Source: a virus
Lineage: Duplodnaviria; Heunggongvirae; Uroviricota; Caudoviricetes
IMG/VR virus record: IMGVR_UViG_2939162341_000002
Reading direction: 5' to 3' (one strand)
Length of the DNA: 37,948 bases
Shown here one piece after another: positions 20 through 37,948 of this stretch. Below the pieces are notes generated by a model, which did not search any database, was not told the origin of the DNA, and worked only from the letters and a program-made list of their open reading frames with translations. Numbering within the stretch: the first letter of the stretch is position 1; each line of letters opens with the position of its first letter. A program made the translations under genes and the position numbers.

Positions 20-1315
20 TTAATTTTTCATTGCTTCGTTATGGGGCATGGTTGGGGCAAACTCGCTTAACTGTGTATTTAACAAAGCTACCTGTGCATT
101 ATTGTTTTCAGACATCCATTTTCCGTATACCTGAAATACCATTTGCGCATCTGCATGGCCCATCTGGTTTGCTATAAATGCCGGGTTAGCACCAGCTGTC
201 AGCGACCAGCAGGCATAAGTATGTCTCGACTGATATGATTTTCGATGGCGGAGTCCGGCACGTTTTATCGCTGCGTCCCACATCTGCCTTATTGAGTCAA
301 CGGTAAAATGGTCACCATAATTTTTTACTCTCGCTGACACTTCAGGTTGAAAAACAAAGGTGCATTTTTGTTTTTCTGTTCTGCCATACTCTCTGAGGTG
401 AACATCAATGATATGCTCTTTGCTCAGTCTCGTTAATGTCATCTGACTCCGGAGAGCGTCGATTGCTGGCTTAATAAGATGAATGACCCGATTGGTTCCC
501 GCCTGTGTTTTTGGTACCGTGAAACGGTCTTTTGCTAAATTTCTCCTGATCATCATTGTTCCATTTTTCAGATCTATGTCCTCCCATCCAAGTGCACACA
601 GCTCACCAGGGCGAACGCCAGTATAAACAGAAACACACCATAAATTTTTTGCTTGCTGATTTCTGCATGCATCGATAAGACGGATAAATTCCTCCCGCGA
701 AAGAGGATCCGGAATGGTTCTTGATTCCTTTAATGGCGAGATCCCCTTAAACGGATTATCTGCCAGGTAACCGTTATCAACACCAAACTGGAACACGGCG
801 TTAAGATTTGTCATGTAATTATTTACAGTTACAGCCGATCTCCCTGGTTGTGTAACAATATAGTTACTTTTGGGGATCTGGTATCCAGTCAGTAGCTCTT
901 TACGAACCTCCAGTAATTTTTCTTTATTAATCGATGAGGCAAGATTTTTTTCACCGATTATGCTCAGGATATTTTTGATGACGGCACGGTATGTGTTGAG
1001 TGATGTTTTGGAGACTTCAGTTTCTTTCAGTGCCAGAAATTTTTCAGCCAGTTCTTTTATGGTTAAATCTTGTCGGGCCTCACCAAATTTTTCCAGATTG
1101 CGTGAGGAGGGAAACTGTTTTGCATAGTCGAAAACACCAGTTTTTATTGCGTAACAAACAGAGGAGCGTAGTTCACCTGCAACGCGCCTGTTTTTTGCTG
1201 TGTCAGGAACCCCCAGATTTTCCCTGACTCTTACGCCTTTATAAACAAACCAGATACGTAATTTCCCTCCATGGTTTTCCACGCCTGTCGGATATTTCAT
1301 TTCAACTTCTCTCAT
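20..1315 (-). CDS. int: Phage integrase, tyrosine recombinase (lambda Int family)
   Basis: 431-aa ORF; C-terminal catalytic region with R...H..R..Y pattern (RHTYACWSLTAGANPAFIANQMGHADAQMVFQVYGKW); sits at prophage edge reading outward, next to an excisionase-like gene. Native start may be the internal MKYPTG. Confidence 0.9.
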   Translation of the reverse strand: MREVEMKYPTGVENHGGKLRIWFVYKGVRVRENLGVPDTAKNRRVAGELRSSVCYAIKTGVFDYAKQFPSSRNLEKFGEARQDLTIKELAEKFLALKETEVSKTSLNTYRAVIKNILSIIGEKNLASSINKEKLLEVRKELLTGYQIPKSNYIVTQPGRSAVTVNNYMTNLNAVFQFGVDNGYLADNPFKGISPLKESRTIPDPLSREEFIRLIDACRNQQAKNLWCVSVYTGVRPGELCALGWEDIDLKNGTMMIRRNLAKDRFTVPKTQAGTNRVIHLIKPAIDALRSQMTLTRLSKEHIIDVHLREYGRTEKQKCTFVFQPEVSARVKNYGDHFTVDSIRQMWDAAIKRAGLRHRKSYQSRHTYACWSLTAGANPAFIANQMGHADAQMVFQVYGKWMSENNNAQVALLNTQLSEFAPTMPHNEAMKN

Positions 1316-1334
1316 TAGTTAGTGTGGCTTTTAG

Positions 1335-1586
1335 TCAAGTAAGATGACGTCTTGGTCTCGCTGATGCCTGGCGCTCAATCCAGCGATCAATTTCTTCCAG
1401 GTTGTAAAAGCATGGACTGTTATCCCATGGCATACCGTCATGAGCGACATGCTTATATTCCCTTCCTTCCATAAACGATTTTTCCCGGGCCTTTTTTAAC
1501 GTACCTTTTTTTATTCCTTTCAGCGCAATTAACTGCTCTTCGGATACCCATTTGCCGGGAGAGACAATCATGATTACTTCGCTCAT
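1335..1586 (-). CDS. xis: Excisionase-like DNA-binding protein (Xis)
   Basis: 83-aa ORF immediately upstream of int on the same strand; shares the GREY segment with lambda Xis as I recall it; small basic protein in the canonical int-xis arrangement. Confidence 0.7.
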   Translation of the reverse strand: MSEVIMIVSPGKWVSEEQLIALKGIKKGTLKKAREKSFMEGREYKHVAHDGMPWDNSPCFYNLEEIDRWIERQASARPRRHLT

Positions 1587-1658
1587 CGATTTCTTTATCT
1601 CTTACATCAGACGAGCGCCGGTTGCAGAATACCAGTCACAACCGGCGACAGTTGAACA

Positions 1659-3587
1659 TTAAGAATCAGCCTGACTCGGGATCAGTTTTTGCCAGATAAC
1701 TGAAACGTATTTTGCCTGGTAACGGGCGTCATCAAGTGCATTATGGCGCTCACCTTCGAATGGAATAGCCGTTCTGGCATCGAAGTCTATGGCTTTCCCC
1801 AGCTCAACGATTGTGCGTACATCGCGATCGTTGTAGTAACGCCACGGGCAGGGGATCCCCTGCCGTTCGTATGAACGGCGCAAAATCGTGTTGTCGAAGT
1901 TGGCTCCATTTCCCCAAACCTGAACAAAAAATTCACCGGAGTTTTCGTCGATAAATTCCCGCAATTGTAACAGTGCATCATCTAACGGGATTTCATCGGT
2001 CATAATGGCAGATTGCGATTCGCGTGATTGCTTAAGCCACCATTTAATGGTGTCCCGATCAATGACTCCGCCAGCAGTTTCCAGATCGATAGTCTTACTA
2101 AATTCCGGTCCCATATCTCCGGTTTGCGGATCGAAAAATATTGCACCTATTGAGATGATCGGGGCATCAGGATTTTTTCCCATGGTTTCAAGGTCGATCA
2201 TTAGATGGTCACACGTCCTGCTGGTGGATGTGATTTCGTGATGACCGTTCACCTTAATTGGGTGATCTGCCGTCTCGCCAGTTTCATTATCGCTATTGTG
2301 ATGCTGATTGCCGCCAGTGTTCTCCTTGTGTGGATGTTCAGCGCCTTCCATTTCCTCCGGATCATCTTCCTGAACTTCAACCTGATACTCTTCATCGAAT
2401 GTTTCTTGGTATGTTGCGTCGCCCATCACCGCGCCACAATCAGGGCAGTTGCCGCCGCCGGTCTGACCGCAGGCGGTGCAGGCTTTTTCCACTTCCTGGT
2501 GCGCCACTGGTTCAGGCTGTTTCGTTTCTGGCTCGTTTTGTAACGCATTTGGACTGTTTTGTTCCGCTTTTTGGTAGTTCCGTTCCGATTCATGCTGGTT
2601 CTGGTTCACAGAATCGCGGGTCTGGATCCCCTTAACCCATTTCGGATCATTCGGGTCACTAATCCCTTCAACAAATTCACCACGTGATGCAGCAAGCAAC
2701 TTATCGGCGTCAGGCTGGCTGATATTGGCTGCCTGCATAATTTTGTTTACTTCGTCAGCGGTAACTTTTATCGGCTCTGGTTGTTCTGAATCTTCAGCGG
2801 TATCTACATTTTGCGGTAAGCCCGTGTATGTGCCATTTTTTCGGGCAAAATATTCTTCTTTTGTGATTTCAGTGGCGCCAGCAGCCAGTGCCTTATCCAG
2901 ACCAGAAAGTTTGTTTGCGCGACCGTATTTTTCTCCGTCCTTATCTGCGAAGAGGAAATAGAACGGCCCCTCACGCTCTACAGATGGTTCAGCTTCCGGC
3001 GCGGTTTCATTTTTTGGGATATCAGATACCTCAGTTTCCACTGCATCAGTTTGTGTTTCTGATGACTGGAGAACATCAACAGTGCCCAGGTCTGTTTCTT
3101 CATTCTCAAACACGCCCTTTGTCGTCAGGTATTCGCAGATATATTTGTTCAGTGCTACGGGATCTTTGTGAATGTCGATCGGACGCTCACGGACAAGGCC
3201 AAAAATAGTTTGGCGGTCGTAGCGAAGGGCATCAGGCTGTTTGCGCATTGATGCCGAGATACGCTTCCAGTCTTCGCGGTCGTTGTCGATAACTTCTTTT
3301 TTTGCCCAGCGATGGATGCTGCCGTCAATGTTTCCGGCATCCACATCACCAGGCCAGAGAGCGTAGGCCAGTTCGTCATCCAGTGTTTTCCATGTCTGCT
3401 TGTATTCGCGATGAATGGCAGCAATGACCGGGCTGATTTTTCCTGTTGAATTTTCAGTGTACTGTTGATTGGCTCTGGCGCGGGCGAGATCAACAACAGA
3501 CGTGTATTTTCCGGTTTCCTTGCGTTCACCTTCGCGACGTTTTTTCCAGATGCGCATCTCTGCCTGAATTTCGGGTGATGCTGCCAA
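1659..3587 (-). CDS. Prophage exonuclease with C-terminal DnaQ-like 3'-5' exonuclease (DEDDh) domain; 5' end runs into IS1, so likely truncated or promoter-less
   Basis: C-terminal region has DEDDh-type motifs (MIDLETMG, NGANFDNTILRR, HNALDDARYQAKY); central CxxC...CxxC zinc-ribbon (CTACGQTGGGNCPDCGAV). The ORF-finder start (TTG) lies inside the IS1 terminal repeat, so the native 5' end is lost or displaced. Confidence 0.75.
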   Translation of the reverse strand: MAASPEIQAEMRIWKKRREGERKETGKYTSVVDLARARANQQYTENSTGKISPVIAAIHREYKQTWKTLDDELAYALWPGDVDAGNIDGSIHRWAKKEVIDNDREDWKRISASMRKQPDALRYDRQTIFGLVRERPIDIHKDPVALNKYICEYLTTKGVFENEETDLGTVDVLQSSETQTDAVETEVSDIPKNETAPEAEPSVEREGPFYFLFADKDGEKYGRANKLSGLDKALAAGATEITKEEYFARKNGTYTGLPQNVDTAEDSEQPEPIKVTADEVNKIMQAANISQPDADKLLAASRGEFVEGISDPNDPKWVKGIQTRDSVNQNQHESERNYQKAEQNSPNALQNEPETKQPEPVAHQEVEKACTACGQTGGGNCPDCGAVMGDATYQETFDEEYQVEVQEDDPEEMEGAEHPHKENTGGNQHHNSDNETGETADHPIKVNGHHEITSTSRTCDHLMIDLETMGKNPDAPIISIGAIFFDPQTGDMGPEFSKTIDLETAGGVIDRDTIKWWLKQSRESQSAIMTDEIPLDDALLQLREFIDENSGEFFVQVWGNGANFDNTILRRSYERQGIPCPWRYYNDRDVRTIVELGKAIDFDARTAIPFEGERHNALDDARYQAKYVSVIWQKLIPSQADS

Positions 3588-3628
3588 CTTACTGATTTAG
3601 TGTATGATGGTGTTTTTGAGGTGCTCCA

Positions 3629-3904
3629 GTGGCTTCTGTTTCTATCAGCTGTCCCTCCTGTTCAGCTACTGACGGGGTGGTGCGTAACGGCAAAAGCACC
3701 GCCGGACATCAGCGCTATCTCTGCTCTCACTGCCGTAAAACATGGCAACTGCAGTTCACTTACACCGCTTCTCAACCCGGTACGCACCAGAAAATCATTG
3801 ATATGGCCATGAATGGCGTTGGATGCCGGGCAACTGCCCGCATTATGGGCGTTGGCCTCAACACGATTTTACGTCACTTAAAAAACTCAGGCCGCAGTCG
3901 GTAA
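3629..3904 (+). CDS. insA: IS1 InsA
   Basis: 91-aa ORF with Cys-rich N-terminus ([28 protein letters not shown]), recognised as IS1 InsA from memory. Confidence 0.93.
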
Positions 3905-4326
3905 CCTCGCGCATACAACCGGGCAGCGATGTGATTGTCTGCGCTGAAATGGACGAACAGTGGGGCTACGTAGGTGCTAAATCACGTCAGCGCTGGCTGT
4001 TTTACGCGTATGACAGGATACGGAGGACGGTTGTGGCGCACGTCTTCGGTGAACGCACTCTGGCCACACTGGAGCGTCTTATGAGCCTGCTGTCGGCCTT
4101 TGACGTGGTGATATGGATGACGGATGGCTGGCCGCTGTATGAATCCCGCCTGAAGGGAAAGCTGCACGTAATCAGCAAGCGTTACACTCAGCGCATTGAG
4201 CGACATAATCTGAATCTGAGACAACATCTGGCAAGGCTGGGACGGAAGTCACTGTCGTTCTCAAAATCGGTGGAGCTGCATGACAAAGTCATCGGGCATT
4301 ATCTGAACATAAAACACTATCAGTAA
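3823..4326 (+). CDS. insB: IS1 InsB (transposase, made as InsAB' by -1 frameshift)
   Basis: 167-aa ORF overlapping the insA 3' end in the -1 frame, characteristic of IS1. Confidence 0.93.
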
Positions 4327-4387
4327 GTTGGAGTCATTACCGAATCGCAACGTAGTTATTATCATATAACAGCTTGTTTCCTGATTT

Positions 4388-4417
4388 AGCCAGCCTCCCC
4401 AAAGGCTGGTTTTTTTC
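4388..4417 (+). terminator. Rho-independent terminator (hairpin plus T7 run)
   Basis: AGCCAGCCT-CCCCAAA-AGGCTGG followed by TTTTTTT, directly right of IS1. Confidence 0.6.
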
Positions 4418-4444
4418 TAATAAGTATCATTTCGGGTGGGGATT

Positions 4445-4969
4445 TTATTGTTTAACCCATAATAGTTCATTGACATTGAATCCCAACTTTTGAGCGGTAC
4501 GCACATAGTCTGCTTTTACATTATCTGGAATAGTTTGGGTCCTTGCCAGAATCCATAGGTATTCTCTGTTCGGACCACTGACAAGAGCATACTTATACTC
4601 ATCATCCAGCTTGATTACATTATAGCCACCATAGAAGGGGCCAAAAAACGAAACTTTCAACGCTGCAGTTTTAGTATCTCCAGTAAAGTATGCTTTACCT
4701 TCGCTCTCGCTCCATTTGTTTTTCGTTGGATCGTATCCACGGTTAAGTACGCGAATCCCTCCGTCGTTCCGTTTTTCATAAGTAGCGCTGACCTGTTCCA
4801 GACCACGTTCGAACCAGTTCTCGAGGCGAGCTATTTCATACCATTTTCCGAGGTAGCGGTTGGCGTCAAAATTTGTAATCGGCTGCACACCTTTAGGTGG
4901 TGTCGGGGCCTTACATGCTATAAGAGTGAAAGAGAGTGCAATGCCAGTCAACACAGGCCATAACTTCAT
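4445..4969 (-). CDS. Outer-membrane lipoprotein of the bacterial lipocalin family (Blc-like paralog)
   Basis: 174 aa; lipoprotein signal peptide with lipobox (LIAC); lipocalin motifs shared with E. coli Blc as recalled (FDANRYLGKWYEIAR, GKAYFTG, ALKVSFFGPFYGGYNVI). Confidence 0.85.
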   Translation of the reverse strand: MKLWPVLTGIALSFTLIACKAPTPPKGVQPITNFDANRYLGKWYEIARLENWFERGLEQVSATYEKRNDGGIRVLNRGYDPTKNKWSESEGKAYFTGDTKTAALKVSFFGPFYGGYNVIKLDDEYKYALVSGPNREYLWILARTQTIPDNVKADYVRTAQKLGFNVNELLWVKQ

Positions 4970-9346: not shown

Positions 9347-9709
9347 ATTAATATTAAATCGGATTATTTTTAGCGCTGAATGTGAAATTTAAATAAAAAG
9401 GACTCTTCCATGAGTCAAAATCCTTGAAATCTTAAGGGTAAGATAAAAGGTCATTAGACAGAATGACACGTTTTATTAATAAATAAAGCTATTGTTTCAT
9501 TCGTGTGTTTTTCTTTACAAAAGTAATCCTTGCTATGGTTGGTTAATCATGCGTTAATGGTGTTCTGGTTTGTTACAAAATTATCTGAAGCAGTCATTGT
9601 TATAATTTTATTATTTGTACCTCTTGAGATTTCCTTGTTGGTTTTTCTCTCTGATATTTTTTTTCGGACCATTCTGCCCAAGGGCTAACTTCTTCAAAAG
9701 GTAATAATG

Positions 9710-9922
9710 ATGTCTAACAAAATGACTGGTTTAGTGAAATGGTTTAACCCTGAAAAAGGTTTTGGTTTCATCACGCCGAAAGATGGTAGCAAAGATGTGT
9801 TTGTCCATTTCTCAGCTATTCAGAGCAACGATTTCAAAACGTTAACTGAGAATCAGGAAGTCGAATTTGGTATTGAGAACGGACCTAAAGGCCCCGCGGC
9901 TGTTCATGTTGTGGCACTTTGA
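9710..9922 (+). CDS. cspI: Cold-shock protein, CspA family (CspI-like)
   Basis: 70 aa; [38 protein letters not shown] matches CspA-family RNP motifs; roughly 360 bp upstream non-coding leader as in cold-shock genes. Confidence 0.9.
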
Positions 9923-10121
9923 GGTAGAAAATATTACAAACCATATTCACTTTAGATGCCCGTGTTGCCATGGTTCTCAGTATAGAACATCATCTTTTGA
10001 TGTTTCTGACAGGAATCCTTTCGGGGCAAAATGTATCTTTTGTAAATCAATGATGATTACATTTGATAATATTTCACAATACTTAAATGTTAGCCGTCTG
10101 TCGTTAGATTTAAGAAAGTGA
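9906..10121 (+). CDS. ynfN: Small Cys-rich protein (YnfN-like, Qin-type)
   Basis: Contains [19 protein letters not shown]...CIFCKS; the first in-frame ATG (9906) overlaps the cspI 3' end, so the true start is uncertain. Confidence 0.5.
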
Positions 10122-27013: not shown

Positions 27014-30000
27014 ATGGGTAAAGGCAGCAGTAAGGGGCATACTCCGCGCGAAGCGAAGGACAACCTGAAGTCCACGCAGTTGCTGAGTGTGATCGATGCC
27101 ATCAGCGAAGGGCCGGTTGAAGGTCCGGTGGATGGATTAAAAAGCGTGCTGCTGAACAGTACGCCAGTGCTGGACAGTGAGGGGAATACCAATATATCCG
27201 GCGTCACGGTGGTGTTCCGGGCCGGTGAGCAGGAGCAGACACCGCCGGAGGGATTTGAATCCTCCGGCTCCGAGACGGTGCTCGGTACAGAAGTGAAATA
27301 TGACACGCCGATCACCCGGACCATCACGTCGGCAAACATTGACCGTCTGCGTTTTACTTTCGGCGTGCAGGCACTGGTGGAAACCACCTCAAAGGGGGAC
27401 AGGAATCCATCGGAAGTCCGCCTGCTGGTTCAGATACAACGTAACGGTGGCTGGGTGACGGAAAAAGACATCACCATTAAGGGTAAAACCACTTCACAGT
27501 ATCTGGCCTCGGTGGTGGTGGATAACCTGCCGCCGCGCCCGTTCAGTATCCGGATGCGCAGGATGACGCCGGACAGCACCACAGACCAGCTGCAGAACAA
27601 AACGCTCTGGTCGTCATACACCGAAATTATCGATGTGAAACAGTGCTACCCGAACACGGCACTGGTCGGCGTGCAGGTGGACTCGGAGCAGTTCGGCAGC
27701 CAGCAGGTGAGCCGTAATTATCATCTGCGCGGGCGTATTCTGCAGGTGCCGTCGAATTATAACCCGCAGACGCGGCAATACAGCGGTATCTGGGACGGAA
27801 CGTTTAAACCGGCATACAGCAACAACATGGCCTGGTGTCTGTGGGATATGCTGACCCATCCGCGCTACGGCATGGGGAAACGTCTTGGTGCGGCGGATGT
27901 GGATAAATGGGCGTTGTATGTTATCGGCCAGTACTGCGACCAGTCAGTGCCGGACGGTTTTGGCGGCACGGAGCCGCGCATCACCTGTAATGCCTGGCTG
28001 ACCACACAGCGCAAGGCGTGGGATGTGCTCAGTGATTTCTGCTCGGCGATGCGCTGTATGCCGGTATGGAACGGGCAGACGCTGACGTTCGTGCAGGACC
28101 GACCATCAGATAAGGTGTGGACCTATAACCGCAGTAATGTGGTGATGCCGGATGATGGCGCGCCGTTCCGCTACAGCTTCAGCGCCCTGAAGGACCGCCA
28201 TAATGCCGTTGAGGTGAACTGGATTGACCCGAACAACGGCTGGGAGACGGCGACAGAGCTTGTTGAAGATACGCAGGCCATTGCCCGTTACGGTCGTAAT
28301 GTTACGAAGATGGATGCCTTTGGCTGTACCAGCCGGGGGCAGGCACACCGCGCCGGGCTGTGGCTGATTAAAACGGAGCTGCTGGAGACGCAGACCGTGG
28401 ATTTCAGCGTGGGTGCCGAAGGGCTTCGCCATGTGCCGGGTGATGTTATTGAAATCTGCGATGATGACTATGCGGGGATCAGCATCGGCGGGCGCGTGCT
28501 GGCTGTGAACAGCCAGACCCGGACGCTGACGCTCGACCGTGAAATCACGCTGCCATCCTCCGGTACCACGCTGATAAGCCTGGTTGACGGAAGTGGCAAT
28601 CCGGTCAGCGTGGAGGTCCAGTCCGTCACCGACGGCGTGAAGGTAAAAGTGAGCCGTGTTCCTGACGGCGTTGCCGGATACAGCGTATGGGGGCTGAAGC
28701 TGCCGACGCTGCGCCAGCGCCTGTTCCGCTGCGTGAGTATCCGTGAGAACGATGACGGCACGTATGCCATCACCGCCGTGCAGCATGTACCGGAAAAAGA
28801 GGCCATCGTGGATAACGGGGCGCACTTTGACGGCGACCAGAGCGGCACGGTGAATGGTGTCACGCCGCCAGCGGTGCAGCACCTGACTGCCGAAGTCACC
28901 GCAGACAGCGGGGAATATCAGGTGCTGGCGCGCTGGGACACGCCGAAGGTGGTGAAGGGGGTGAGCTTTATGCTTCGCCTGACCGTGGCAGCGGATGACG
29001 GCAGTGAGCGGCTGGTCAGCACGGCCCGGACGACGGAAACCACATACCGCTTCACGCAACTGGCGCCAGGGAACTACAGGCTGACAGTCCGGGCGGTAAA
29101 TGCGTGGGGACAGCAGGGCGATCCGGCATCGGTATCGTTCCGGATTGCCGCACCGGCAGCGCCGTCTCGGATTGAGCTGACACCGGGCTATTTTCAGATA
29201 ACCGCCACGCCGCATCTTGCGGTTTATGACCCGACGGTACAGTTTGAGTTCTGGTTCTCGGAAAAACGGATTACCGATATCAGGCAGGTTGAAACCACAG
29301 CCCGCTATCTTGGCACGGCGCTGTACTGGATAGCTGCCAGTATCAATATCAGGCCGGGCCATGATTATTATTTTTACGTTCGTAGTGTGAACACCGTTGG
29401 CAAATCGGCATTCGTGGAGGCTGTCGGTCGGGCGAGCGATGATGCGGAAGGTTACCTGGATTTTTTCAAAGGCAAGATAACCGAATCTCATCTCGGCAAG
29501 GAGTTGCTGGAAAAAGTCGACCTGACGGAGGATAACGCCAGCAAACTGGATGAGTTTTCGAAAGAGTGGAAGGACGCCAACGATAAGTGGAATGCCATGT
29601 GGGGCGTCAAAATTGAGCAGACCAAAGACGGCAAACATTATGTCGCGGGGCTTGGCCTCAGCATGGAGGATACAGAGGAAGGCAAACTGAGCCAGTTTCT
29701 GGTTGCCGCCAATCGTATCGCGTTTATTGACCCGGCAAACGGGAATGAAACGCCGATGTTTGTGGCGCAGGGCAACCAGATATTCATGAACGACGTGTTC
29801 CTGAAACGCCTGACGGCCCCCACCATTACCAGTGGTGGAAATCCACCGGTATTTTCCCTGACACCGGACGGAAAGCTGACCGCTAAAAATGCGGATATTA
29901 GTGGCAGTGTGAATGCGAACTCCGGGACGCTCAACAACGTCACGATAAATGAAAACTGTACGATTAAGGGCATGCTGGAGGCGAATCAGGTCAGAGGTGA

Positions 30001-30427
30001 TTTTGTTAAAACAGTATCCAAATCATTCCCGAAAAAGGCTGGTACGTGGGGTAACACGGAAACACCAGACGGGACGGTTACAGTCACCATCAGCGATGAT
30101 CATAACTTTGACCGTCAAATCATTATTCCGCCCATTATCTTTAACGGTATAGCGTATGATGATCCGGGAAGTGGTGATAACCCGGGAGGTACAAGGTACA
30201 CGGGGTATGGTTTTGAAGTTCGCAAAAACGGCGTATTAATCGCATCCAGAGAAACTAAAGGGGCCATTCCCGGTAGTTACAGTGCGGTTATTGATATGCC
30301 GAGTGGCAGGGGAAGCGTCACTCTGGAGTTTAAGATTTTCCAGAAAGGCAATCAGGGGGCAGGCAATATCACCGACTGTACGGTGATTGTGACCAAAAAG
30401 GCTGCTTCCGGCATCAGTATTCGTTGA
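27014..30427 (+). CDS. Central tail fibre / host specificity protein J
   Basis: 1137 aa; lambda J-like N-terminus ([22 protein letters not shown]...); position after I. Confidence 0.92.
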
Positions 30428-30449
30428 AATTGTTATAACCCCAATAAAG

Positions 30450-30473
30450 GGCGTCAGGAATGACGCCTTTTTT
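30450..30473 (+). terminator. Rho-independent terminator after J
   Basis: GGCGTCA-GGAA-TGACGCC followed by TTTTTT. Confidence 0.65.
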
Positions 30474-30497
30474 ATTGCAGAAAAGCGAGAGGTAATT

Positions 30498-31097
30498 ATG
30501 CGTAAAGTTTGTGCAGCCATTTTGTCCGCAGCCATCTGTCTGGTCGTATCCGGTGCGCCTGCATGGGCGTCTGAACATCAGTCCACGCTGAGCGCGGGGT
30601 ATCTTCATGCCTCGACGAACGTTCCCGGCAGCGATGATCTGAACGGGATTAATGTGAAATACCGCTATGAGTTTACGGACACGCTGGGGATGGTGACGTC
30701 ATTCAGCTATGCAGGAGACAAGAATCGCCAGCTGACCCGCTACAGCGATACCCGCTGGCATGAAGATTCCTTGCGTAACCGCTGGTTCAGCGTGATGGCG
30801 GGGCCGTCTGTACGCGTGAATGAATGGTTCAGCGCGTATGCGATGGCGGGTGTGGCTTACAGCCGTGTGTCGACTTTCTCCGGGGATTATCTCCGCGTAA
30901 CTGACAACAAGGGGAAAACGCACGATGTGCTGACCGGAAGTGATGACGGTCGCCACAGCAACACGTCTCTGGCGTGGGGAGCTGGCGTGCAGTTTAACCC
31001 GACCGAATCGGTGGCCATTGATATTGCTTATGAAGGCTCCGGCAGTGGCGACTGGCGCACTGACGGTTTCATCGTGGGTGTCGGTTATAAGTTCTGA
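30498..31097 (+). CDS. lom: Lom-like outer-membrane beta-barrel protein (Ail/PagC/Lom family)
   Basis: 199 aa; signal peptide; alternating beta-strand pattern; C-terminal aromatic residue (GVGYKF); canonical lom position between J and stf. Confidence 0.85.
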   Translation: MRKVCAAILSAAICLVVSGAPAWASEHQSTLSAGYLHASTNVPGSDDLNGINVKYRYEFTDTLGMVTSFSYAGDKNRQLTRYSDTRWHEDSLRNRWFSVMAGPSVRVNEWFSAYAMAGVAYSRVSTFSGDYLRVTDNKGKTHDVLTGSDDGRHSNTSLAWGAGVQFNPTESVAIDIAYEGSGSGDWRTDGFIVGVGYKF

Positions 31098-31123
31098 TTA
31101 GCCAGGTAACACAGTGTTATGAC

Positions 31124-31150
31124 AGCCCGCCGGTTCAGGCGGGCTTTTTT
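31124..31150 (+). terminator. Rho-independent terminator after lom
   Basis: AGCCCGCC-GGTTCA-GGCGGGCT followed by TTTTTT. Confidence 0.65.
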
Positions 31151-31161
31151 GTGGGGTGAAT

Positions 31162-34100
31162 ATGGCAGTAAAGATTTCAGGTGTACTGAAAGACGGTGCA
31201 GGTAAACCGGTACAGAACTGCACAATCCAGCTGAAAGCAAAACGTAACAGCACCACGGTGGTGGTGAACACGGTGGCATCTGAAAATCCGGATGAAGCAG
31301 GGCGTTACAGCATGGACGTTGAGTACGGTCAGTACAGCGTTATTCTGTTGGTGGAAGGATTCCCGCCGTCACATGCCGGGACCATCACCGTGTATGAAGA
31401 CTCACAACCGGGTACGCTGAATGATTTTCTCGGTGCCATGACGGAGGATGATGCCCGTCCGGAGGCACTGCGCCGCTTTGAACTGATGGTGGAAGAGGTG
31501 GCGCGTAACGCGTCCGCAGTGGCACAGAACACGGCAGCCGCGAAGAAGTCAGCCAGTGATGCCAGCACATCTGCCAGTGAGGCGGCAACCCATGCGACTG
31601 ATGCTGCAGATTCAGCACGTGCAGCCAGCACGTCAGCCGGACAGGCCGCGACGTCGGCTCAGGAGGCTTTTTCCAGCGCAGGAACGGCATCAGCAAAAGC
31701 CTCTGAGGCATCAAAAAGTGCTGCCGCTGCAGAGTCCTCAAAAAGCGCGGCGGCTACCAGTGCCGGTGCGGCGAAAACGTCAGAAACGAATGCTGCAGCG
31801 TCACAAAAATCTGCAGCCACTTCTGCATCCACCGCGACCACGAAAGCGTCAGAAGCTGCCACCTCAGCCCGGGATGCGGCGGCCTCAAAAGAGGCAGCGA
31901 AATCATCAGAAACGAACGCATCATCAAGTGCCAGTAGTGCAGCTTCCTCGGCAACGGCGGCAGGAAATTCCGCGAAGGCCGCAAAAACGTCTGAGACGAA
32001 TGCGGATAACAGCGCACAGGCGGCAGCAGACTCACAAACTGCATCGGCAAACTCCGCGACAGCAGCCAAAAAATCAGAAACCAACGCGAAAAATAGCGAG
32101 GCAGCAGCAAAGAGCAGCGAAACAAACGCTAAAGCCAGCGAAACTAATGCTAAATCCAGTGAAACAAACGCGGCGAAATCTGCGGCGGACGCACTTAATT
32201 ATCGCAACCAGGCGCAAGTAATTGTTGGCGATAATATCGGTCTTGGTGAAGTTGCCATGACCTGCACTGATATCTCTGTTGAGCCATCAGGTTATATTGG
32301 ATTTGTCAGGATTTACATCTCAGCGAAAGGTTATCCATCAGTAGCGTCTAGTGCCGGGGATAATCTTATTTCTGGTTATATAGTTAGATCAGAAGTGTCA
32401 ACAAAAAGATATTCCGGTCTATTTGTTGGTTCAGATACAAAATCATTGTATTCGTACATTTACAGCCAAAGTTCTGGCCCGCAATGGATACGTCATACCC
32501 GCAGAGATGAATTAAGCCGCTTTGGTCAAAATGAATCAACAACTCGTATGTATGGTCCAACTGGTGATCGTTTCTTTGAAATCCATACTAACGGGAGTTG
32601 GGGGGTTTATGATTCTTCTTCTGGACAATGGTCTCCGTTAGGTTTAGCCCAGGGCGGTACTGGTGGAAGAACTATCGAGCAAGCACGTGCGAACTTGCGG
32701 GTAATGTATGAGCAAAAAGCTGGCCTTGCTAATACTGACCTAAACACCCTTACCGGTGAATATTCTGGTTTCTATCAACAACCAACGAGCGCTTACGCAA
32801 CAGAAGAATTAAATTACCCAATCGGTCTGGCGGGCGCTTTAATAGTGCTCCAAACGAGAGCCAACACTGCTTCTTCCTGCGTTCAGGTGTACTACCCTTA
32901 TAATAATCCGGGAATTACTTATAGACGAATATATGAAGGAGGTAGCGGTACCTGGTCTGAATGGAAGAGAGATGTATCAACAGAAAGGGTTGAAGAGGGA
33001 AAAGAAACAACTTACGTATATTCTACGTATTCTTCAGGCGCACCACGCTTACAGGTTTCCAAATCTGGTTTGTGGGGTTGTCATAATGGCACTGGCTGGT
33101 TGCCATTAGCTGTTGGGCAAGGAGGTACAGGTGCGACAACAGTAGAAGATGCGCGAAACAACTTAAGTCTTGGCGAAAGTAGCGCAGTTAAATTTAAAAA
33201 CCTTACTTTAACCGAAGCGCTCGACACGACATTAGGACTGCTTACAAAAACAGGACGAGACTGGAACACGCAGCATACTGATAACATTAATAAATTTATA
33301 CCAATTGCAGGCAGTACAAACGGCCCGGCAGGTTCTATGGTTCTTGGCGGCATTCATGTTCAATTTAGTAAAAATTATGCTGTGCAGTTCGGAGGCCGCA
33401 ATTCCGGTTTTTGGGGAAGAACAATTGAAAATGGAACGACGCAGGAATGGAAGAAATTACTAACAGTAGACGATCTCAATTCATCTACCGATCTTGCTGT
33501 CAGGTCATTAACCACATCTAACCCGGTAAAATCTGGCGGAGGGCGAATTGATGTCCTTGGAAGCACGTCAGACTATAGCAAAATGGATTGCTTTGTACGT
33601 GGGTTTGATAGCACCGGTAATTCTCTCGCGTGGGCGTTGGGTTCATCAGTCGGCGTAAGTAAGATGCTGTCGCTAAAAAATTTCTTTAGCGGAGCTGAGA
33701 TACTGCTAAATGGTAATGACGGCGCGGTTCAACTCAAAACAGGTGCTGTTAACGGGGCTAAAGCGCAGGCGCTCACTATCAACAAGGATGAGGTTAACTC
33801 AACAGTTGATTTAACCCTTACAAAACAATCAGGGACTGGCAATCGTTTTGTTTTACAGAACTTAGGTAATACAGAACTATCATTTGCCGCAAAAGTATGG
33901 GGATCAAGTGATCGACAAAACGTTTTTGAGGTTGGAACGTCTGCTGCATATCTGTTTTATGCGCAAAAAACATCAGCAGGCCAGTTGTTTGATGTAAATG
34001 GCGCTATTAATTGCACAACGCTGAATCAGTCATCAGACCGCGACCTTAAAGACGATATTCTCGTTATCAGCGACGCGACGAAAGCAATCCGTAAAATGAA

Positions 34101-34467
34101 CGGATACACCTACACGCTCAAGGAAAACGGGATGCCTTATGCTGGCGTTATTGCACAGGAAGTAATGGAGGCGATACCAGAAGCTGTGGGATCGTTTACT
34201 CATTATGGTGAAGAGTTGCAAGGTCCGACCGTTGACGGCAACGAGCTACGCGAAGAAACTCGCTATCTTAATGTTGACTACTCCGCCGTGACGGGTTTAC
34301 TTGTTCAGGTCGCCCGTGAAACAGATGATCGCGTTACCGCGCTGGAAGAGGAAAACACAACGCTACGTCAAAATCTGGCAACAGCAGGCACCCGGATCAG
34401 CACTCTGGAAAATCAGGTAAGCGAACTGGTTGCACTTGTCGGGCAGTTAACAGGAAGCGAACATTGA
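31162..34467 (+). CDS. stf: Side tail fibre protein (StfR-like N-terminus, Ala/Ser-rich repeat shaft, C-terminal intramolecular chaperone domain)
   Basis: Starts MAVKISGVLKDGAGKPVQNCTIQLKAKRNS like K-12 StfR as recalled; long AS-rich repeat region; C-terminal region (SDRDLKDDILVISDATKAIRKMNGYTYTL...) resembles peptidase S74-type chaperone domains. Confidence 0.88.
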   Translation: MAVKISGVLKDGAGKPVQNCTIQLKAKRNSTTVVVNTVASENPDEAGRYSMDVEYGQYSVILLVEGFPPSHAGTITVYEDSQPGTLNDFLGAMTEDDARPEALRRFELMVEEVARNASAVAQNTAAAKKSASDASTSASEAATHATDAADSARAASTSAGQAATSAQEAFSSAGTASAKASEASKSAAAAESSKSAAATSAGAAKTSETNAAASQKSAATSASTATTKASEAATSARDAAASKEAAKSSETNASSSASSAASSATAAGNSAKAAKTSETNADNSAQAAADSQTASANSATAAKKSETNAKNSEAAAKSSETNAKASETNAKSSETNAAKSAADALNYRNQAQVIVGDNIGLGEVAMTCTDISVEPSGYIGFVRIYISAKGYPSVASSAGDNLISGYIVRSEVSTKRYSGLFVGSDTKSLYSYIYSQSSGPQWIRHTRRDELSRFGQNESTTRMYGPTGDRFFEIHTNGSWGVYDSSSGQWSPLGLAQGGTGGRTIEQARANLRVMYEQKAGLANTDLNTLTGEYSGFYQQPTSAYATEELNYPIGLAGALIVLQTRANTASSCVQVYYPYNNPGITYRRIYEGGSGTWSEWKRDVSTERVEEGKETTYVYSTYSSGAPRLQVSKSGLWGCHNGTGWLPLAVGQGGTGATTVEDARNNLSLGESSAVKFKNLTLTEALDTTLGLLTKTGRDWNTQHTDNINKFIPIAGSTNGPAGSMVLGGIHVQFSKNYAVQFGGRNSGFWGRTIENGTTQEWKKLLTVDDLNSSTDLAVRSLTTSNPVKSGGGRIDVLGSTSDYSKMDCFVRGFDSTGNSLAWALGSSVGVSKMLSLKNFFSGAEILLNGNDGAVQLKTGAVNGAKAQALTINKDEVNSTVDLTLTKQSGTGNRFVLQNLGNTELSFAAKVWGSSDRQNVFEVGTSAAYLFYAQKTSAGQLFDVNGAINCTTLNQSSDRDLKDDILVISDATKAIRKMNGYTYTLKENGMPYAGVIAQEVMEAIPEAVGSFTHYGEELQGPTVDGNELREETRYLNVDYSAVTGLLVQVARETDDRVTALEEENTTLRQNLATAGTRISTLENQVSELVALVGQLTGSEH
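31525..32200 (+). repeat. Low-complexity Ala/Ser/Thr-rich tandem repeat region inside stf
   Basis: Reiterated SETNA(K/A)(S/A)S-type units in the translation; produces multiple overlapping spurious ORFs on both strands. Confidence 0.8.
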
Positions 34468-34640
34468 TATCCTTCAAGCCCTGAAGGAGGCTGTTCCTGG
34501 TACGTTCAGACTGTTGTTGAGCTGGAAATCGCAACGGAGGAAGAAACTTCGTTGCTGGAAGTCTGGAAAAAGTATCGGGTGTTGCTGAACCGTGTTAATA
34601 CATCAGTAGTACCGGATATTGAATGGCCAGCACTGCCGTA
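34468..34640 (+). pseudogene. Remnant of a tail fibre assembly gene (tfa C-terminus), in frame directly after the stf stop
   Basis: Translation ...[39 protein letters not shown] matches the conserved Tfa C-terminus as recalled; no start codon or RBS of its own. Confidence 0.7.
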
Positions 34641-34738
34641 GGGTAAAACATATAAATTCTATAATTAGATGTATCTTTCCATTTACGGCAAGGAAGGGGG
34701 CTTGGAAGACGTAAAGCATCTCACACCGAGATTATTTT

Positions 34739-35329
34739 TTATATGTCAGGTGTCTGAAGTTTTGCTTTGGCTCTTAAAATGGTTTGCCGCGAGGTTTTGA
34801 ATTCCCGGGCAATGGCACTTATACTTACACCTGACTTAATTCGTTCGAATACCACCTGTTTCTGTTCTTCATTTAACACAGGTGGTCGACCAAAACGTTT
34901 CCCTGCGCCGCGGGCTCTTACTATCCCGGAATGAGTGCGTTCAAGTAAAAGGTCTCGTTCAAATTCAGCGACTGCTGAAATTACTTGCATCATCATTTTT
35001 CCTGTTGGACTGGTCAGGTCAATGCCACCCAATGCTAAGCAATGCACTCTGATACCTGTTTCGGTCAGTTGTTCCACTGTTTTCCTGATATCCATTGCAT
35101 TACAACCAAGGCGATCCAGTTTTGTCACAATCAATTGATCACCACATTTCAGGCGAGCAAGCAACCGGTTAAAACCAGGACGCTCACTGGTTGCTGCTGA
35201 GCCGCTAATGTGTTCTTCGATTATTTGCTGAGGTTTGATTTTAAAACCTGCACTTTCGATTTCCCGGCGTTGATTTTCGGTGGTCTGATCCAGCGTTGAT
35301 ATCCGACAGTAAGCAAAAATTCGAGACAT
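34739..35329 (-). CDS. Serine recombinase (resolvase/invertase family)
   Basis: 196 aa; N-terminal catalytic motif (YCRISTLDQ with Ser nucleophile, KLDRLG); C-terminal HTH ([20 protein letters not shown]); occupies the Pin-invertase position next to the tail-fibre genes. Confidence 0.88.
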
Positions 35330-35645
35330 AGTGAGACTCTATACGAAATTGGTGTTCATATCATAATGCATCTCAGAAAATAATTATGATTATTTTTGTG
35401 CATATTTGTATGTACACGTTCGAAAATAAACGAATGCGTATGCAACCCCGTAATTTTGGTGAGACCCAAAATCGATTTTGTGAAAAATGGCTTTAACTCG
35501 GTTTGTTTTTCGAGTTCCGGGCGGACTCAAGGAAGAAGAATAGTGTTGCGTGTTATTTTAACCAGATTTCAAGTTGTTTGGTCGTGGAAAAGTGGAGCAA
35601 AATGTTGTTAAAGTGGAAAAATGATAAAAAAGTAAGTTTATTATA

Positions 35646-35879
35646 TTACATTTTACCATTTAAATTTTGGTTGTCTTTAAGAACTGATATCGCTGTTTGT
35701 AATAATTCTTTGTTATCCAGCCATGATTTTTTCTTTATGTTTCCTTCAATGTAATCAAGCAATGTTCTGGTATTGATAGGTCTTCCCTGTTTTGCTACTT
35801 CCACTACAGCATCCCCTAGGATAATTCTTACTTCAGGAAGCTGCGCAGGGAACCACTTTAGGGTGTCTTTTGATTTCAT
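35646..35879 (-). CDS. ydfK: YdfK/YnaE-family small protein
   Basis: 77 aa from the ATG with RBS AAGGA (MKSKDTLKWFPAQLPEVRIILGDAVVEVAKQG...); matches my recollection of K-12 YdfK; the ORF extends 11 codons upstream without an RBS. Confidence 0.7.
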   Translation of the reverse strand: MKSKDTLKWFPAQLPEVRIILGDAVVEVAKQGRPINTRTLLDYIEGNIKKKSWLDNKELLQTAISVLKDNQNLNGKM

Positions 35880-36664
35880 GAAGATATTCCTTAAAATATT
35901 ATTGATTTTCATTGCGATATTGTATGTCTGATTCAGGATATGTTGACTTATACATCGGTTTTGTCTGGGTTATTGGATATGCCAATCCCTAATTTTATTA
36001 GGGCATGACTAAAAATGCTGAATATGATAAGGAGAGATGTGATTATCAGTATGCTGTTCATATAGCCTCGAATTAGTAATGTGTTATATATGATATAGTT
36101 GACAATTTTTATCTTGGGTGTTCTTAAAGTTCGTAGATAAACATTGTCGTTTCAGGTATACAGGAATGCTAACAGGTGGCAGCAAAAATCAGGCGGTTTA
36201 TGGCGCAAGCTGAAGCGGCAACTGCAAACTATCTTATGCAGAGACTCTACACGGATTGGGTTTAAAAGTATACATAGATAACAGTTTTTATCTGAAAAAG
36301 AAAAATATCAAGGTGATATAGCCTATATGCCTTTGATGCGGAGGAATGAATGTGATGGGAGTGATGTATCTGAATAGTTGAAAAACCGCAGACACGCCTT
36401 ATGCAAGAACGTGCTGCGGTTGGCTGGTAAATTTTTCGATAGTGTGAGTATTGAATGATTTCCAGCCGTTCTTGATTTTACGCATAAATCCATGAAAAAA
36501 CTACTTATCTGTTGGGGAGTTTTTTTGGGGCATATATGGGACAGAAATAGGCCCCAGATAGACACTGAGATCGAACTTAGGATGCTTTTTAAAAAATGCA
36601 ACTATCTGAAAAAACCTAGAAAACGCCAAGGAAACCACAGGATGGGAAAAAACACCTGTGAATT

Positions 36665-37948
36665 ATGGATTTCCAGTTATATTCGCTCGGCGCAGCGTTA
36701 GTGTTTCATGAAATATTTTTTCCTGAATCATCAACGGCAATGGCGTTAATTCTGGCAATGGGAACCTACGGTGCAGGTTATGTGGCGCGTATTGTCGGAG
36801 CATTTATTTTCGGCAAAATGGGCGACAGAATAGGGCGTAAAAAAGTGCTCTTTATTACCATCACCATGATGGGGATCTGTACCACCTTAATTGGTGTGTT
36901 ACCGACCTATGCACAGATTGGTGTTTTTGCACCCATCTTGCTGGTGACGTTGCGTATTATTCAGGGGTTGGGTGCAGGTGCGGAAATTTCCGGTGCCGGT
37001 ACGATGCTGGCGGAATATGCGCCAAAAGGTAAGCGCGGAATTATCTCCTCATTTGTGGCTATGGGAACTAACTGCGGAACCTTGAGCGCAACGGCAATCT
37101 GGGCCTTTATGTTCTTCATTCTCAGTAAAGAGGAACTGCTGGCGTGGGGATGGCGTATACCGTTCCTGGCGAGCGTTGTCGTGATGGTCTTTGCTATCTG
37201 GTTGCGTATGAATCTGAAAGAAAGCCCGGTCTTTGAGAAGGTTAACGACAGTAACCAACCGACAGCAAAACCTGCACCTGCTGGTAGCATGTTCCAGAGC
37301 AAATCCTTCTGGCTGGCAACAGGGCTGCGTTTTGGTCAGGCGGGTAACTCCGGGTTAATTCAGACTTTCCTTGCAGGCTATTTAGTGCAGACGTTATTGT
37401 TTAACAAAGCAATTCCAACAGATGCATTGATGATCAGTTCGATTCTCGGCTTTATGACCATTCCGTTCCTTGGTTGGTTATCCGATAAAATTGGTCGCCG
37501 GATCCCGTATATTATTATGAATACCTCCGCGATTGTGCTGGCATGGCCAATGCTTTCTATCATTGTAGATAAAAGCTATGCCCCGAGCACCATTATGGTT
37601 GCACTGATTGTGATTCATAACTGTGCGGTGCTGGGATTATTTGCTCTGGAAAACATTACCATGGCAGAAATGTTCGGCTGTAAAAACCGCTTTACCCGGA
37701 TGGCTATTTCTAAAGAAATTGGTGGTCTTATCGCTTCCGGTTTTGGTCCTATCCTGGCGGGTATTTTCTGCACCATGACGGAATCCTGGTATCCGATCGC
37801 CATTATGATCATGGCATATTCAGTGATTGGTTTAATCTCTGCGCTGAAAATGCCAGAGGTGAAAGACCGTGATTTAAGTGCGCTGGAAGACGCTGCGGAA
37901 GATCAACCGCGTGTTGTAAGAGCTGCGCAACCTTCCAGAAGTCTGTAA
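36665..37948 (+). CDS. ydfJ: MFS metabolite:H+ symporter (YdfJ-like), N-terminally truncated host gene at the prophage junction
   Basis: 427 aa with MFS motifs (GKMGDRIGRKK, multiple TM segments); begins mid-way through the first transmembrane helix with no RBS, consistent with a lost 5' end; runs to the window end. Confidence 0.85.
   Translation: MDFQLYSLGAALVFHEIFFPESSTAMALILAMGTYGAGYVARIVGAFIFGKMGDRIGRKKVLFITITMMGICTTLIGVLPTYAQIGVFAPILLVTLRIIQGLGAGAEISGAGTMLAEYAPKGKRGIISSFVAMGTNCGTLSATAIWAFMFFILSKEELLAWGWRIPFLASVVVMVFAIWLRMNLKESPVFEKVNDSNQPTAKPAPAGSMFQSKSFWLATGLRFGQAGNSGLIQTFLAGYLVQTLLFNKAIPTDALMISSILGFMTIPFLGWLSDKIGRRIPYIIMNTSAIVLAWPMLSIIVDKSYAPSTIMVALIVIHNCAVLGLFALENITMAEMFGCKNRFTRMAISKEIGGLIASGFGPILAGIFCTMTESWYPIAIMIMAYSVIGLISALKMPEVKDRDLSALEDAAEDQPRVVRAAQPSRSL

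Follow-up and report, generated by a model that had tools for sequence, protein, structure and literature searches.

The side tail fiber gene (stf) described here lies in a 37,948-nt stretch of DNA (IMG/VR record IMGVR_UViG_2939162341_000002, Caudoviricetes; hereafter the window), near the right end of a Qin-like lambdoid prophage, and codes for a mosaic fiber in which a lambda/StfR-type front is joined to a distal module with an intramolecular chaperone domain (IMC) of the S74 family at its end. The stop codon of stf is followed by a 36-nt spacer and by the last 45 codons of a tail fiber assembly gene, tfa. We consider it highly probable that the S74 module and the tfa tail were brought together by a single, old illegitimate join, that the resulting unit has spread by homologous recombination, and that it now consists of the end of a self-chaperoning mosaic fiber and an untranslated stub. 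The junction is one old join and was not formed in this prophage.

The stf gene (31162-34467, plus strand) encodes 1101 residues followed by a TGA stop; the open reading frame (ORF) has the same coordinates as a RefSeq coding sequence and matches the tail fiber family PHROG 6578 (E = 0). Translation would start at an ATG at 31162, with an alternative GTG at 31156. Residues 1-134 (31162-31563, plus strand) form the N-terminal tail-attachment domain, which covers the entire length of the Pfam profile phage_tail_N (PF08400, 3e-72) and, together with the position of the gene after J and lom in the late operon, marks the protein as a lambdoid Stf. An Ala/Ser-rich shaft occupies about residues 118-350. 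At the DNA level, the 5' part of stf, including most of the shaft (31162-32003, plus strand), is common to stfR of the K-12 Rac prophage, with 95.5% identity over 30908-32003 by blastn, and the homology ends at 32003. The DNA comparison was relied on here, as the alignments listed by BLASTP for Stf against StfR were all of low complexity. The ORF is complete and intact, and a ratio of nonsynonymous to synonymous polymorphism (pN/pS) of 0.28 in the stf 3' coding region points to purifying selection.

In the distal half, a pyocin-knob-like domain (residues 529-673; 32746-33180, plus strand) that ends in a GGTGA...AR.NL motif was found by phmmer against the R-pyocin tail fiber structure (PDB 6CL5, 1.4e-6), and its relatives are named 'pyocin knob domain-containing S74 family peptidase' by the Prokaryotic Genome Annotation Pipeline (PGAP). 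The presumed receptor-binding part (residues 677-957; 33190-34032, plus strand) is based on BLASTP with mEp460, on tblastn against phages and on matches to T4 gp34-type repeats in the PDB. Residues 677-1101 are 89% identical to Stf of mEp460 (BLASTP), and residues 697-1101 share 39-44% identity with tail-fiber genes of 106-121 kb Salmonella and Escherichia phage genomes (tblastn). The IMC itself (residues 958-1101; 34033-34464, plus strand) comprises an S74 core and a C-terminal coiled coil and is recognized by Pfam PF13884, by PDB 6F45 and by weak fold matches. The Peptidase_S74 profile (PF13884, 'chaperone of endosialidase') matches residues 958-1009 over profile positions 1-57 of 58, with an E-value of 1.8e-12 and 47.8 bits against a gathering cut-off of 22. 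Moreover, a profile of the C-terminal region matches the chaperone part of phage S16 gp37 (PDB 6F45, 4.4e-9), as well as T4 gp34 fiber repeats and the P22 gp26 coiled coil (PDB); an NCBIfam search gave no informative match. The domain is placed as S74 C-terminal chaperones are, forming the last 144 residues of the fiber, in which a long coiled-coil helix comes after an alpha/beta part. An AlphaFold2 (AF2) model of residues 940-1101, with a predicted local distance difference test score (pLDDT) of 72, contains, besides short helices and a beta-hairpin, a helix that spans model residues 101-159; its top nine PDB fold matches are all IMC domains, including MyRF ICA (7DC3), GA-1 (3GUD) and endoNF (3GW6), and we take them as supportive only.

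The motif S957-S958-D-R-D-L-K963 (34030-34050) lies at the boundary of the domain: the S74 match starts at S958, and three homologue alignments show K963 without variation and both S958 and D959 with a conservation of at least 90%. In pb1 of T5, the corresponding residues are Ser1264 and Lys1269, the Thr1263-Ser1264 bond is cleaved and the S1264A substitution blocks cleavage (PMC4690869). S958 and K963 have the Ser-x4-Lys spacing of Ser1264 and Lys1269 and, by analogy, cleavage of Stf is predicted at the S957|S958 bond. The initial annotation of this DNA had described an StfR-like N-terminus with an Ala/Ser-rich shaft and a C-terminal domain resembling auto-cleaving chaperones, with an SDRDLK motif. 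Both ends of that description are borne out, the first by the phage_tail_N match and the DNA identity to stfR, the second by an S74 match above the Pfam threshold in which the Ser and Lys residues are conserved.

After the TGA (34465-34467), the stf frame stays open for 57 codons, until a TAG at 34639-34641. All 57 codons had initially been read as the C-terminus of a Tfa protein ending at 34640; the frame and the Tfa match stand, but the tfa-derived part is shorter, being preceded by a 36-nt spacer, and the end lies one base further on. The spacer (34468-34503, plus strand; the first 12 of the 57 codons) is, on reading its sequence, unrelated to tfa: no intact Tfa aligns with it, and it is present in all copies examined. 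It includes a strong Shine-Dalgarno (SD)-like GAAGGAGG at 34483-34490, which may be the orphaned ribosome-binding site of the gene that stood behind the S74 fiber in the donor phage; no ATG, GTG or TTG occurs in frame between this motif and the tail. The predicted RNA fold of the spacer is no better than that of shuffled sequences (z = -0.24). The stub that follows (34504-34641, plus strand) corresponds to residues 147-191 of TfaR and TfaQ plus the stop codon, and Pfam, blastn and RefSeq agree in marking it as a pseudogene fragment of tfa. The Caudo_TAP profile (PF02413) aligns its positions 87-130 of 131 with peptide residues 14-57 (8.5e-18). Since all matches to intact phage Tfa proteins begin at peptide residue 13, and blastn homology to K-12 tfaR and tfaQ begins at 34505, the tfa-derived part amounts to 45 codons (codons 13-57; 34504-34638). 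Its identity with the C-terminal ends of intact Tfa proteins from lambda-type phages is 75-80%. A full Tfa has about 190 residues; only residues 147-191 are present here, with no in-frame start, and RefSeq lists 34516-34641 as an incomplete 'tail fiber assembly protein' pseudogene missing its N-terminus. The domain and Tfa matches are all far beyond chance. The frame shared by stf and the tail, however, is by itself a 1-in-3 event inherited from the single junction and carries no functional signal.

Comparison with the K-12 prophages places the edges of the module. Homology to Rac runs from lom to position 32003 in stf at 95.5% identity, is interrupted by a gap of 2.5 kb and resumes from 34505 to 35950; K-12 Qin lacks the stf 5' part and matches only from 34505. 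The intervening segment (32004-34504, plus strand) has no blastn match in Rac or Qin and, because homology flanks it on both sides, stands in place of the 3' 2.5 kb of stfR and tfa codons 1-146. Mapping against stfR/tfaR and stfQ/tfaQ, proposed along with the initial annotation, thus yields edges at 32003 and 34505 with both flanks conserved. The accompanying claim, that a self-chaperoning module replaced an ancestral stf 3' end and tfa, agrees with this mapping, although the recipient cannot be read from the junction alone. At the right edge, only 12 of the 18 nt with which the tail begins agree with tfaR, which places the join somewhere in 34504-34522. The fiber is again mosaic in comparison with mEp460, with 95% identity over 30401-32304 and 92.5% over 33250-34627 on either side of a middle part that differs. 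The tail then differs from K-12 at 19 of 109 nt (34505-34613), and the next 1337 nt (34614-35950) at only 2-3; by these mismatch counts, the sequence from 34614 onward, with the last 28 nt of tfa, pinQ and ydfK, is a backbone ~99.8% identical to K-12 Qin and Rac. The step in identity at ~34614 indicates a homologous crossover inside the tail of this window.

The junction is widespread. With a 311-nt probe over the S74 end, the spacer and the tail, the three were found contiguous in 803 of 5426 complete Escherichia coli genomes (~15%). Three cultured phages, mEp460, Ayreon and PhiR70_1, have the stub as well; the sole match to the Tfa C-terminus in mEp460 is this stub, and no tfa gene is annotated beside its stf. 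We also collected, from IMG/VR, 80 loci encoding relatives of the C-terminal 271 residues. All close S74 relatives in this set with enough downstream DNA carry the tail, which always starts at TfaR residue 147, 36 nt past the stop; in 56 copies the stop is set in the same CAT TGA TAT C context, and an exact junction 29-mer occurs in 51 IMG/VR contigs. The same 29-mer found no match in a collection of one genome per species, a weak negative given the exact match and the single genome each, which tentatively suggests that the junction is confined to the E. coli pool. The fusion already has a PGAP product name, 'prophage tail fiber N-terminal domain and S74 family ...'. Among cassettes that are otherwise intact, there are tails cut short at codon 179 and one with a frameshift. 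S74 stf genes without any tfa sequence nearby also exist (loci L059 and L087, the latter with an integrase-like ORF behind stf), and the fiber therefore does not need the tail. At L059 (3284-5596), as at L060-L064, the same stf lacks the tfa stub and has another coiled-coil end of the IMC (...AIEAALASK). On the reverse strand downstream of it, L059 carries a 458-residue reverse-transcriptase-like ORF and a 183-residue ORF that looks membrane-associated, both judged by eye; these may be a defense-type moron.

Behind the tail, at least 13 unrelated contexts occur among 49 loci, including pin, a DinI-like gene with an integrase (mEp460), an AraC-type gene, and a methyltransferase-like ORF with a second partial tfa. 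The homology of other contexts to the window stops at 34602, at 34627-34632 or at 34646, that is, within the tail or at its end, and copies in the pin context switch to K-12-like sequence after 34563, 34581 or 34613. The S74 cassette carries the left part of the tail (34505-34563) along with it, and the right part is that of the recipient backbone. Such patterns are the signature of homologous crossovers that recurred inside the tail. The tail is a used homology arm and not only a fossil: its initial description as a relic of the recombination junction is correct as to the junction, but the event was not local, and a crossover near 34614 makes the tail a recombinant in its own right. On the left, the cassette has no fixed edge, as seen at locus L037, which has wholly different N-terminal 600 residues and is common only from about residue 780; the minimal mobile unit is therefore roughly 33500-34613.

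Two further arrangements were noted in this survey. At L012 and L037 (IMG/VR; 3554-4548 in both), the stub is followed by a reverse-strand 222-residue methyltransferase-like ORF and then by the second partial tfa, an 89-residue ORF ending in ...DIEWPANPVRE, so that a cargo gene is bracketed by two tfa tails. The phage mEp460_ev081 (L009, LR597641), an 'evolved' mEp460, was considered as a case of tail-mediated exchange and rejected, since it carries the whole stfR-tfaR-pinR-int-recE block: its S74-type stf end and integrase region have been swapped for a Rac block (stfR 3' end, tfaR, pinR, ynaE, int, xis, recE), and it appears to have recombined with a K-12 Rac prophage.

These observations, of which the domain identities, the breakpoints, the common junction and the multiplicity of downstream contexts and crossover points are directly shown, can be brought together in one scheme. 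The lambda/StfR-type N-terminal domain and the Ala/Ser-rich shaft would attach the fiber to the tail, and the distal half is a foreign, presumably receptor-binding module with the S74 chaperone at its end. If the analogy with T5 pb1 and the K1F endosialidase applies, this chaperone would trimerize and nucleate folding of the distal fiber, after which the S958/K963 dyad would cut the S957|S958 bond, releasing the 144-residue chaperone and exposing the tip. A separate Tfa chaperone would then be unnecessary, and the loss of tfa codons 1-146 tolerated; both the autoproteolysis of Stf and its independence of Tfa are proposed on the strength of this analogy. The 3' flank of the S74 module would have been joined once to tfa, at about codon 147, by illegitimate recombination, and homologous recombination would since have carried the unit made of receptor-binding tip, IMC, spacer and tfa tail from one E. 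coli lambdoid prophage to another. Its crossover on the left would fall somewhere in the fiber gene and that on the right inside the conserved tfa tail, here at ~34614. The 138 nt after the spacer would thus be an untranslated 3' stub of tfa.

Several observations weigh against this scheme. The fold matches of the IMC model are weak (E 0.013-0.6, TM scores 0.3-0.5) and come from a monomer model only, and the AF2 monomer model of residues 677-1101 is unusable (pLDDT 39). Lambda PaPa is without side tail fibers, and side fibers are dispensable in laboratory lambda, so that the viability of mEp460 is no proof that its Stf works. The variation in the tail is coding-like: the pN/pS of 0.29 is close to that of the stf 3' coding region (0.28), its variable sites number 6, 7 and 13 at codon positions 1, 2 and 3, and premature stops are absent from 36 distinct tail variants. 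Such variation could mean that the tail is translated. The simplest account, however, is that it was imported from functional tfa alleles via recombination, which fits a diversity of the tail (0.075-0.081) ~4-fold that of the adjacent stf end (0.019). Set against import is that an intact tfa allele identical to the tail of the window was not found in the phage collection, the best being 89% identical.

An expressed and functional tail, either as an extension of Stf reached by read-through of the TGA or as a small peptide aiding fiber assembly, would account for its being in frame with stf, for its staying open in almost all copies, for a pN/pS equal to that of the stf coding region and for the strong SD-like motif within the spacer. 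That motif is followed by no in-frame start, however, and the stf stop is an invariant TGA in an invariant context. The 12 spacer codons, which would be part of any read-through product, have 3, 0 and 0 variable sites at positions 1, 2 and 3, a non-coding pattern, albeit in small numbers. Moreover, the truncated tails and the frameshifted one persist in otherwise intact cassettes, the PhiR63_1-type junction (see below) joins the tail at another point and behind a different ORF, and a read-through extension would only lengthen a domain that is itself predicted to be removed by cleavage. We regard a functional tail as extremely unlikely and infer that the stub is untranslated. Only slightly less improbable is that stf is decaying in a cryptic prophage, with an inactive S74 domain and a fiber unable to fold after the loss of tfa. 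The window is indeed Qin-like, and K-12 Qin is cryptic with a truncated stfQ; but the stf ORF is full length, conserved over the whole 4.3 kb in 81 genomes and at its 3' end in 803, its pN/pS is 0.28, its catalytic motif is invariant, and the 3' module is found at 92.5% DNA identity in the plaque-forming phage mEp460.

Two other readings concern the history of the junction. The tail could be a static fossil, the neutral debris of a recent event, with its variants reflecting ancestral polymorphism and no recombination within it. The little divergence of the S74 3' end and spacer (0.019-0.03) fits a young cassette, but the identity to K-12 steps sharply within the tail, at least three switch points occur among the pin-context copies, homology to other contexts stops at the positions given above, and the tail is about four times as diverse as the adjacent sequence; we consider this reading improbable. 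Somewhat better placed, if still unlikely, is a reversed polarity, in which the S74 fiber was resident and the tfa tail came from the right with a pin-type or other module, so that nothing was replaced. Consistent with this, the recipient is not readable from the junction, S74 fibers without a nearby tfa exist (L059, L087), and the DNA of the window from 34614 on has one origin (Qin-like, 99.8%) that differs from that of the left part of the tail. On the other hand, J, lom and the 5' part of stf belong to the type that is paired with an stf 3' end and tfa in K-12 and lambda, and it is the S74 cassette, not the downstream DNA, that the left part of the tail (34505-34563) follows into at least 13 contexts. 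In any event, both polarities yield the same present-day structure and mechanism.

Under the favored scheme of a single join followed by homologous spread, it is conceivable, though we hold it doubtful, that the tfa tail is retained because it serves as a portable adaptor for recombination, so that only cassettes still provided with it would spread. If so, some 110-140 nt of tfa on its 3' side would let a chaperone-independent receptor-binding cassette enter any tfa-bearing lambdoid phage by homologous recombination. A related arrangement is seen in PhiR63_1 (L090, module 454-4623), Tritos (L091) and HannyBb, which have another fiber module of four genes (stf of 790 residues, orf93, an S74 fiber of 346 residues and orf97). 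This module ends in a tfa tail beside pin, with the join placed about 15-25 nt further in, after another ORF. The PhiR63_1/Tritos join is a second, separate junction in the same tfa 3' region, and the tfa end is therefore a recurrent module boundary. If the adaptor proposal were true, the PhiR63_1/Tritos tail and the doubly bracketed cargo of L012 and L037 would be further cases.

The closest parallel for the distal half is T5 pb1 (PDB 4UW7/4UW8, PMC4690869), likewise a long trimeric lateral fiber of a siphovirus with a distal binding domain and a C-terminal S74 chaperone of about 133-144 residues with a coiled coil, a Ser-x4-Lys at the boundary and, as proposed for Stf, no separate assembly chaperone; the tail-fiber genes of the 106-121 kb Salmonella and Escherichia phages are 39-44% identical to stf over residues 697-1073. 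Unlike pb1, the fiber described here has N-terminal two thirds of the lambda/StfR type, and the pb1 PDB chains gave no detectable match in sequence. The K1F endosialidase and the GA-1 neck appendage (MEROPS S74; 3GW6, 3GUD), together with MyRF ICA (7DC3), share PF13884 and the Ser/Lys dyad and are the top fold matches, but the chaperones there serve tailspikes or a eukaryotic transcription factor, and the fold match is weak (monomer). The gene slot (J, lom, stf, tfa, pin, ydfK/ynaE) is that of lambda Stf/Tfa and of stfR-tfaR-pinR and stfQ-tfaQ-pinQ in K-12, where the tip depends on a separate Tfa of 191-194 residues in place of the self-chaperoning module found here; the K-12 prophages share the 5' 840 nt of stf (95.5%), the homologous tfa tail, pin and ydfK (99.8% from 34614) and, for Qin, the ydfJ site. 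With Stf of mEp460 (AFM76057), and with Ayreon and PhiR70_1, the window shares the N-terminus, the last 425 residues (89%), the spacer and the stub. mEp460 differs in the middle 300-400 residues and in having the DinI-like gene and integrase in place of pin, its homology ending at 34627.

A search of the available literature found no paper linking S74 and tail fiber assembly in lambdoid phages, and no mention of the stub among its hits. The arrangement is common in E. coli and already annotated, and it is ordinary lambdoid mosaicism, known in kind and not a discovery: mosaic tail fibers are well known, as are fiber ends with an S74 self-chaperone and stubs of genes that module exchange has left behind, and the case matters little beyond illustration. 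New in this analysis are the 45-codon extent of the stub, the evidence for a single ancestral junction and the repeated use of the stub as a right-hand homology arm. The tip, IMC and tfa tail make up a naturally portable host-range cassette with a defined right-hand crossover zone, which could guide the engineering of lambdoid host range without co-transfer of a matching Tfa. Its many copies are also a clean data set on how short conserved patches steer phage mosaicism.

As to the prophage setting, the end of the window is the right arm of a lambdoid prophage, with the order J (27014-30427), lom (30498-31097; both from the ORF list, Pfam and RefSeq), stf, the tfa-like stretch, a pinQ-type invertase gene, ydfK and ydfJ. 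The ydfJ gene (36665-37948, plus strand) has its 5' end truncated by the prophage, is listed in RefSeq as a pseudogene missing its N-terminus, in the same layout as in K-12, and marks the Qin attachment site. Because this site and the right end match those of the cryptic prophage Qin of K-12, the element is a Qin-like prophage at ydfJ, far more complete than K-12 Qin. At least 14 complete E. coli genomes have DNA identical to the region 31100-35400, and at least 80% of this region is covered in 81 genomes.

The pinQ-type serine invertase gene (34739-35329, minus strand; Pfam Resolvase and HTH_7, RefSeq name pinQ) is intact and ~99.8% identical to the K-12 copies. A pin-family invertase gene beside fiber genes is also found in Mu (G/Gin), P1 (C/Cin) and e14 (P/Pin). 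Unlike in those elements, there is here a single fiber end with a single tfa stub, and no convincing inverted repeats, as crossover sites of an invertible segment, were found in 30400-36700; the host range is therefore not switched by inversion, and the gene is an orphan invertase with no evident substrate here. No terminator-like site was found in 34300-35500, and no Rfam family in the stf/stub region. The sole Rfam match in the window is a cspA thermoregulator at 9552-9968 (plus strand, 109.8 bits), presumably as the leader of a cspI/cspB-type cold-shock gene of the prophage, as found in Qin.

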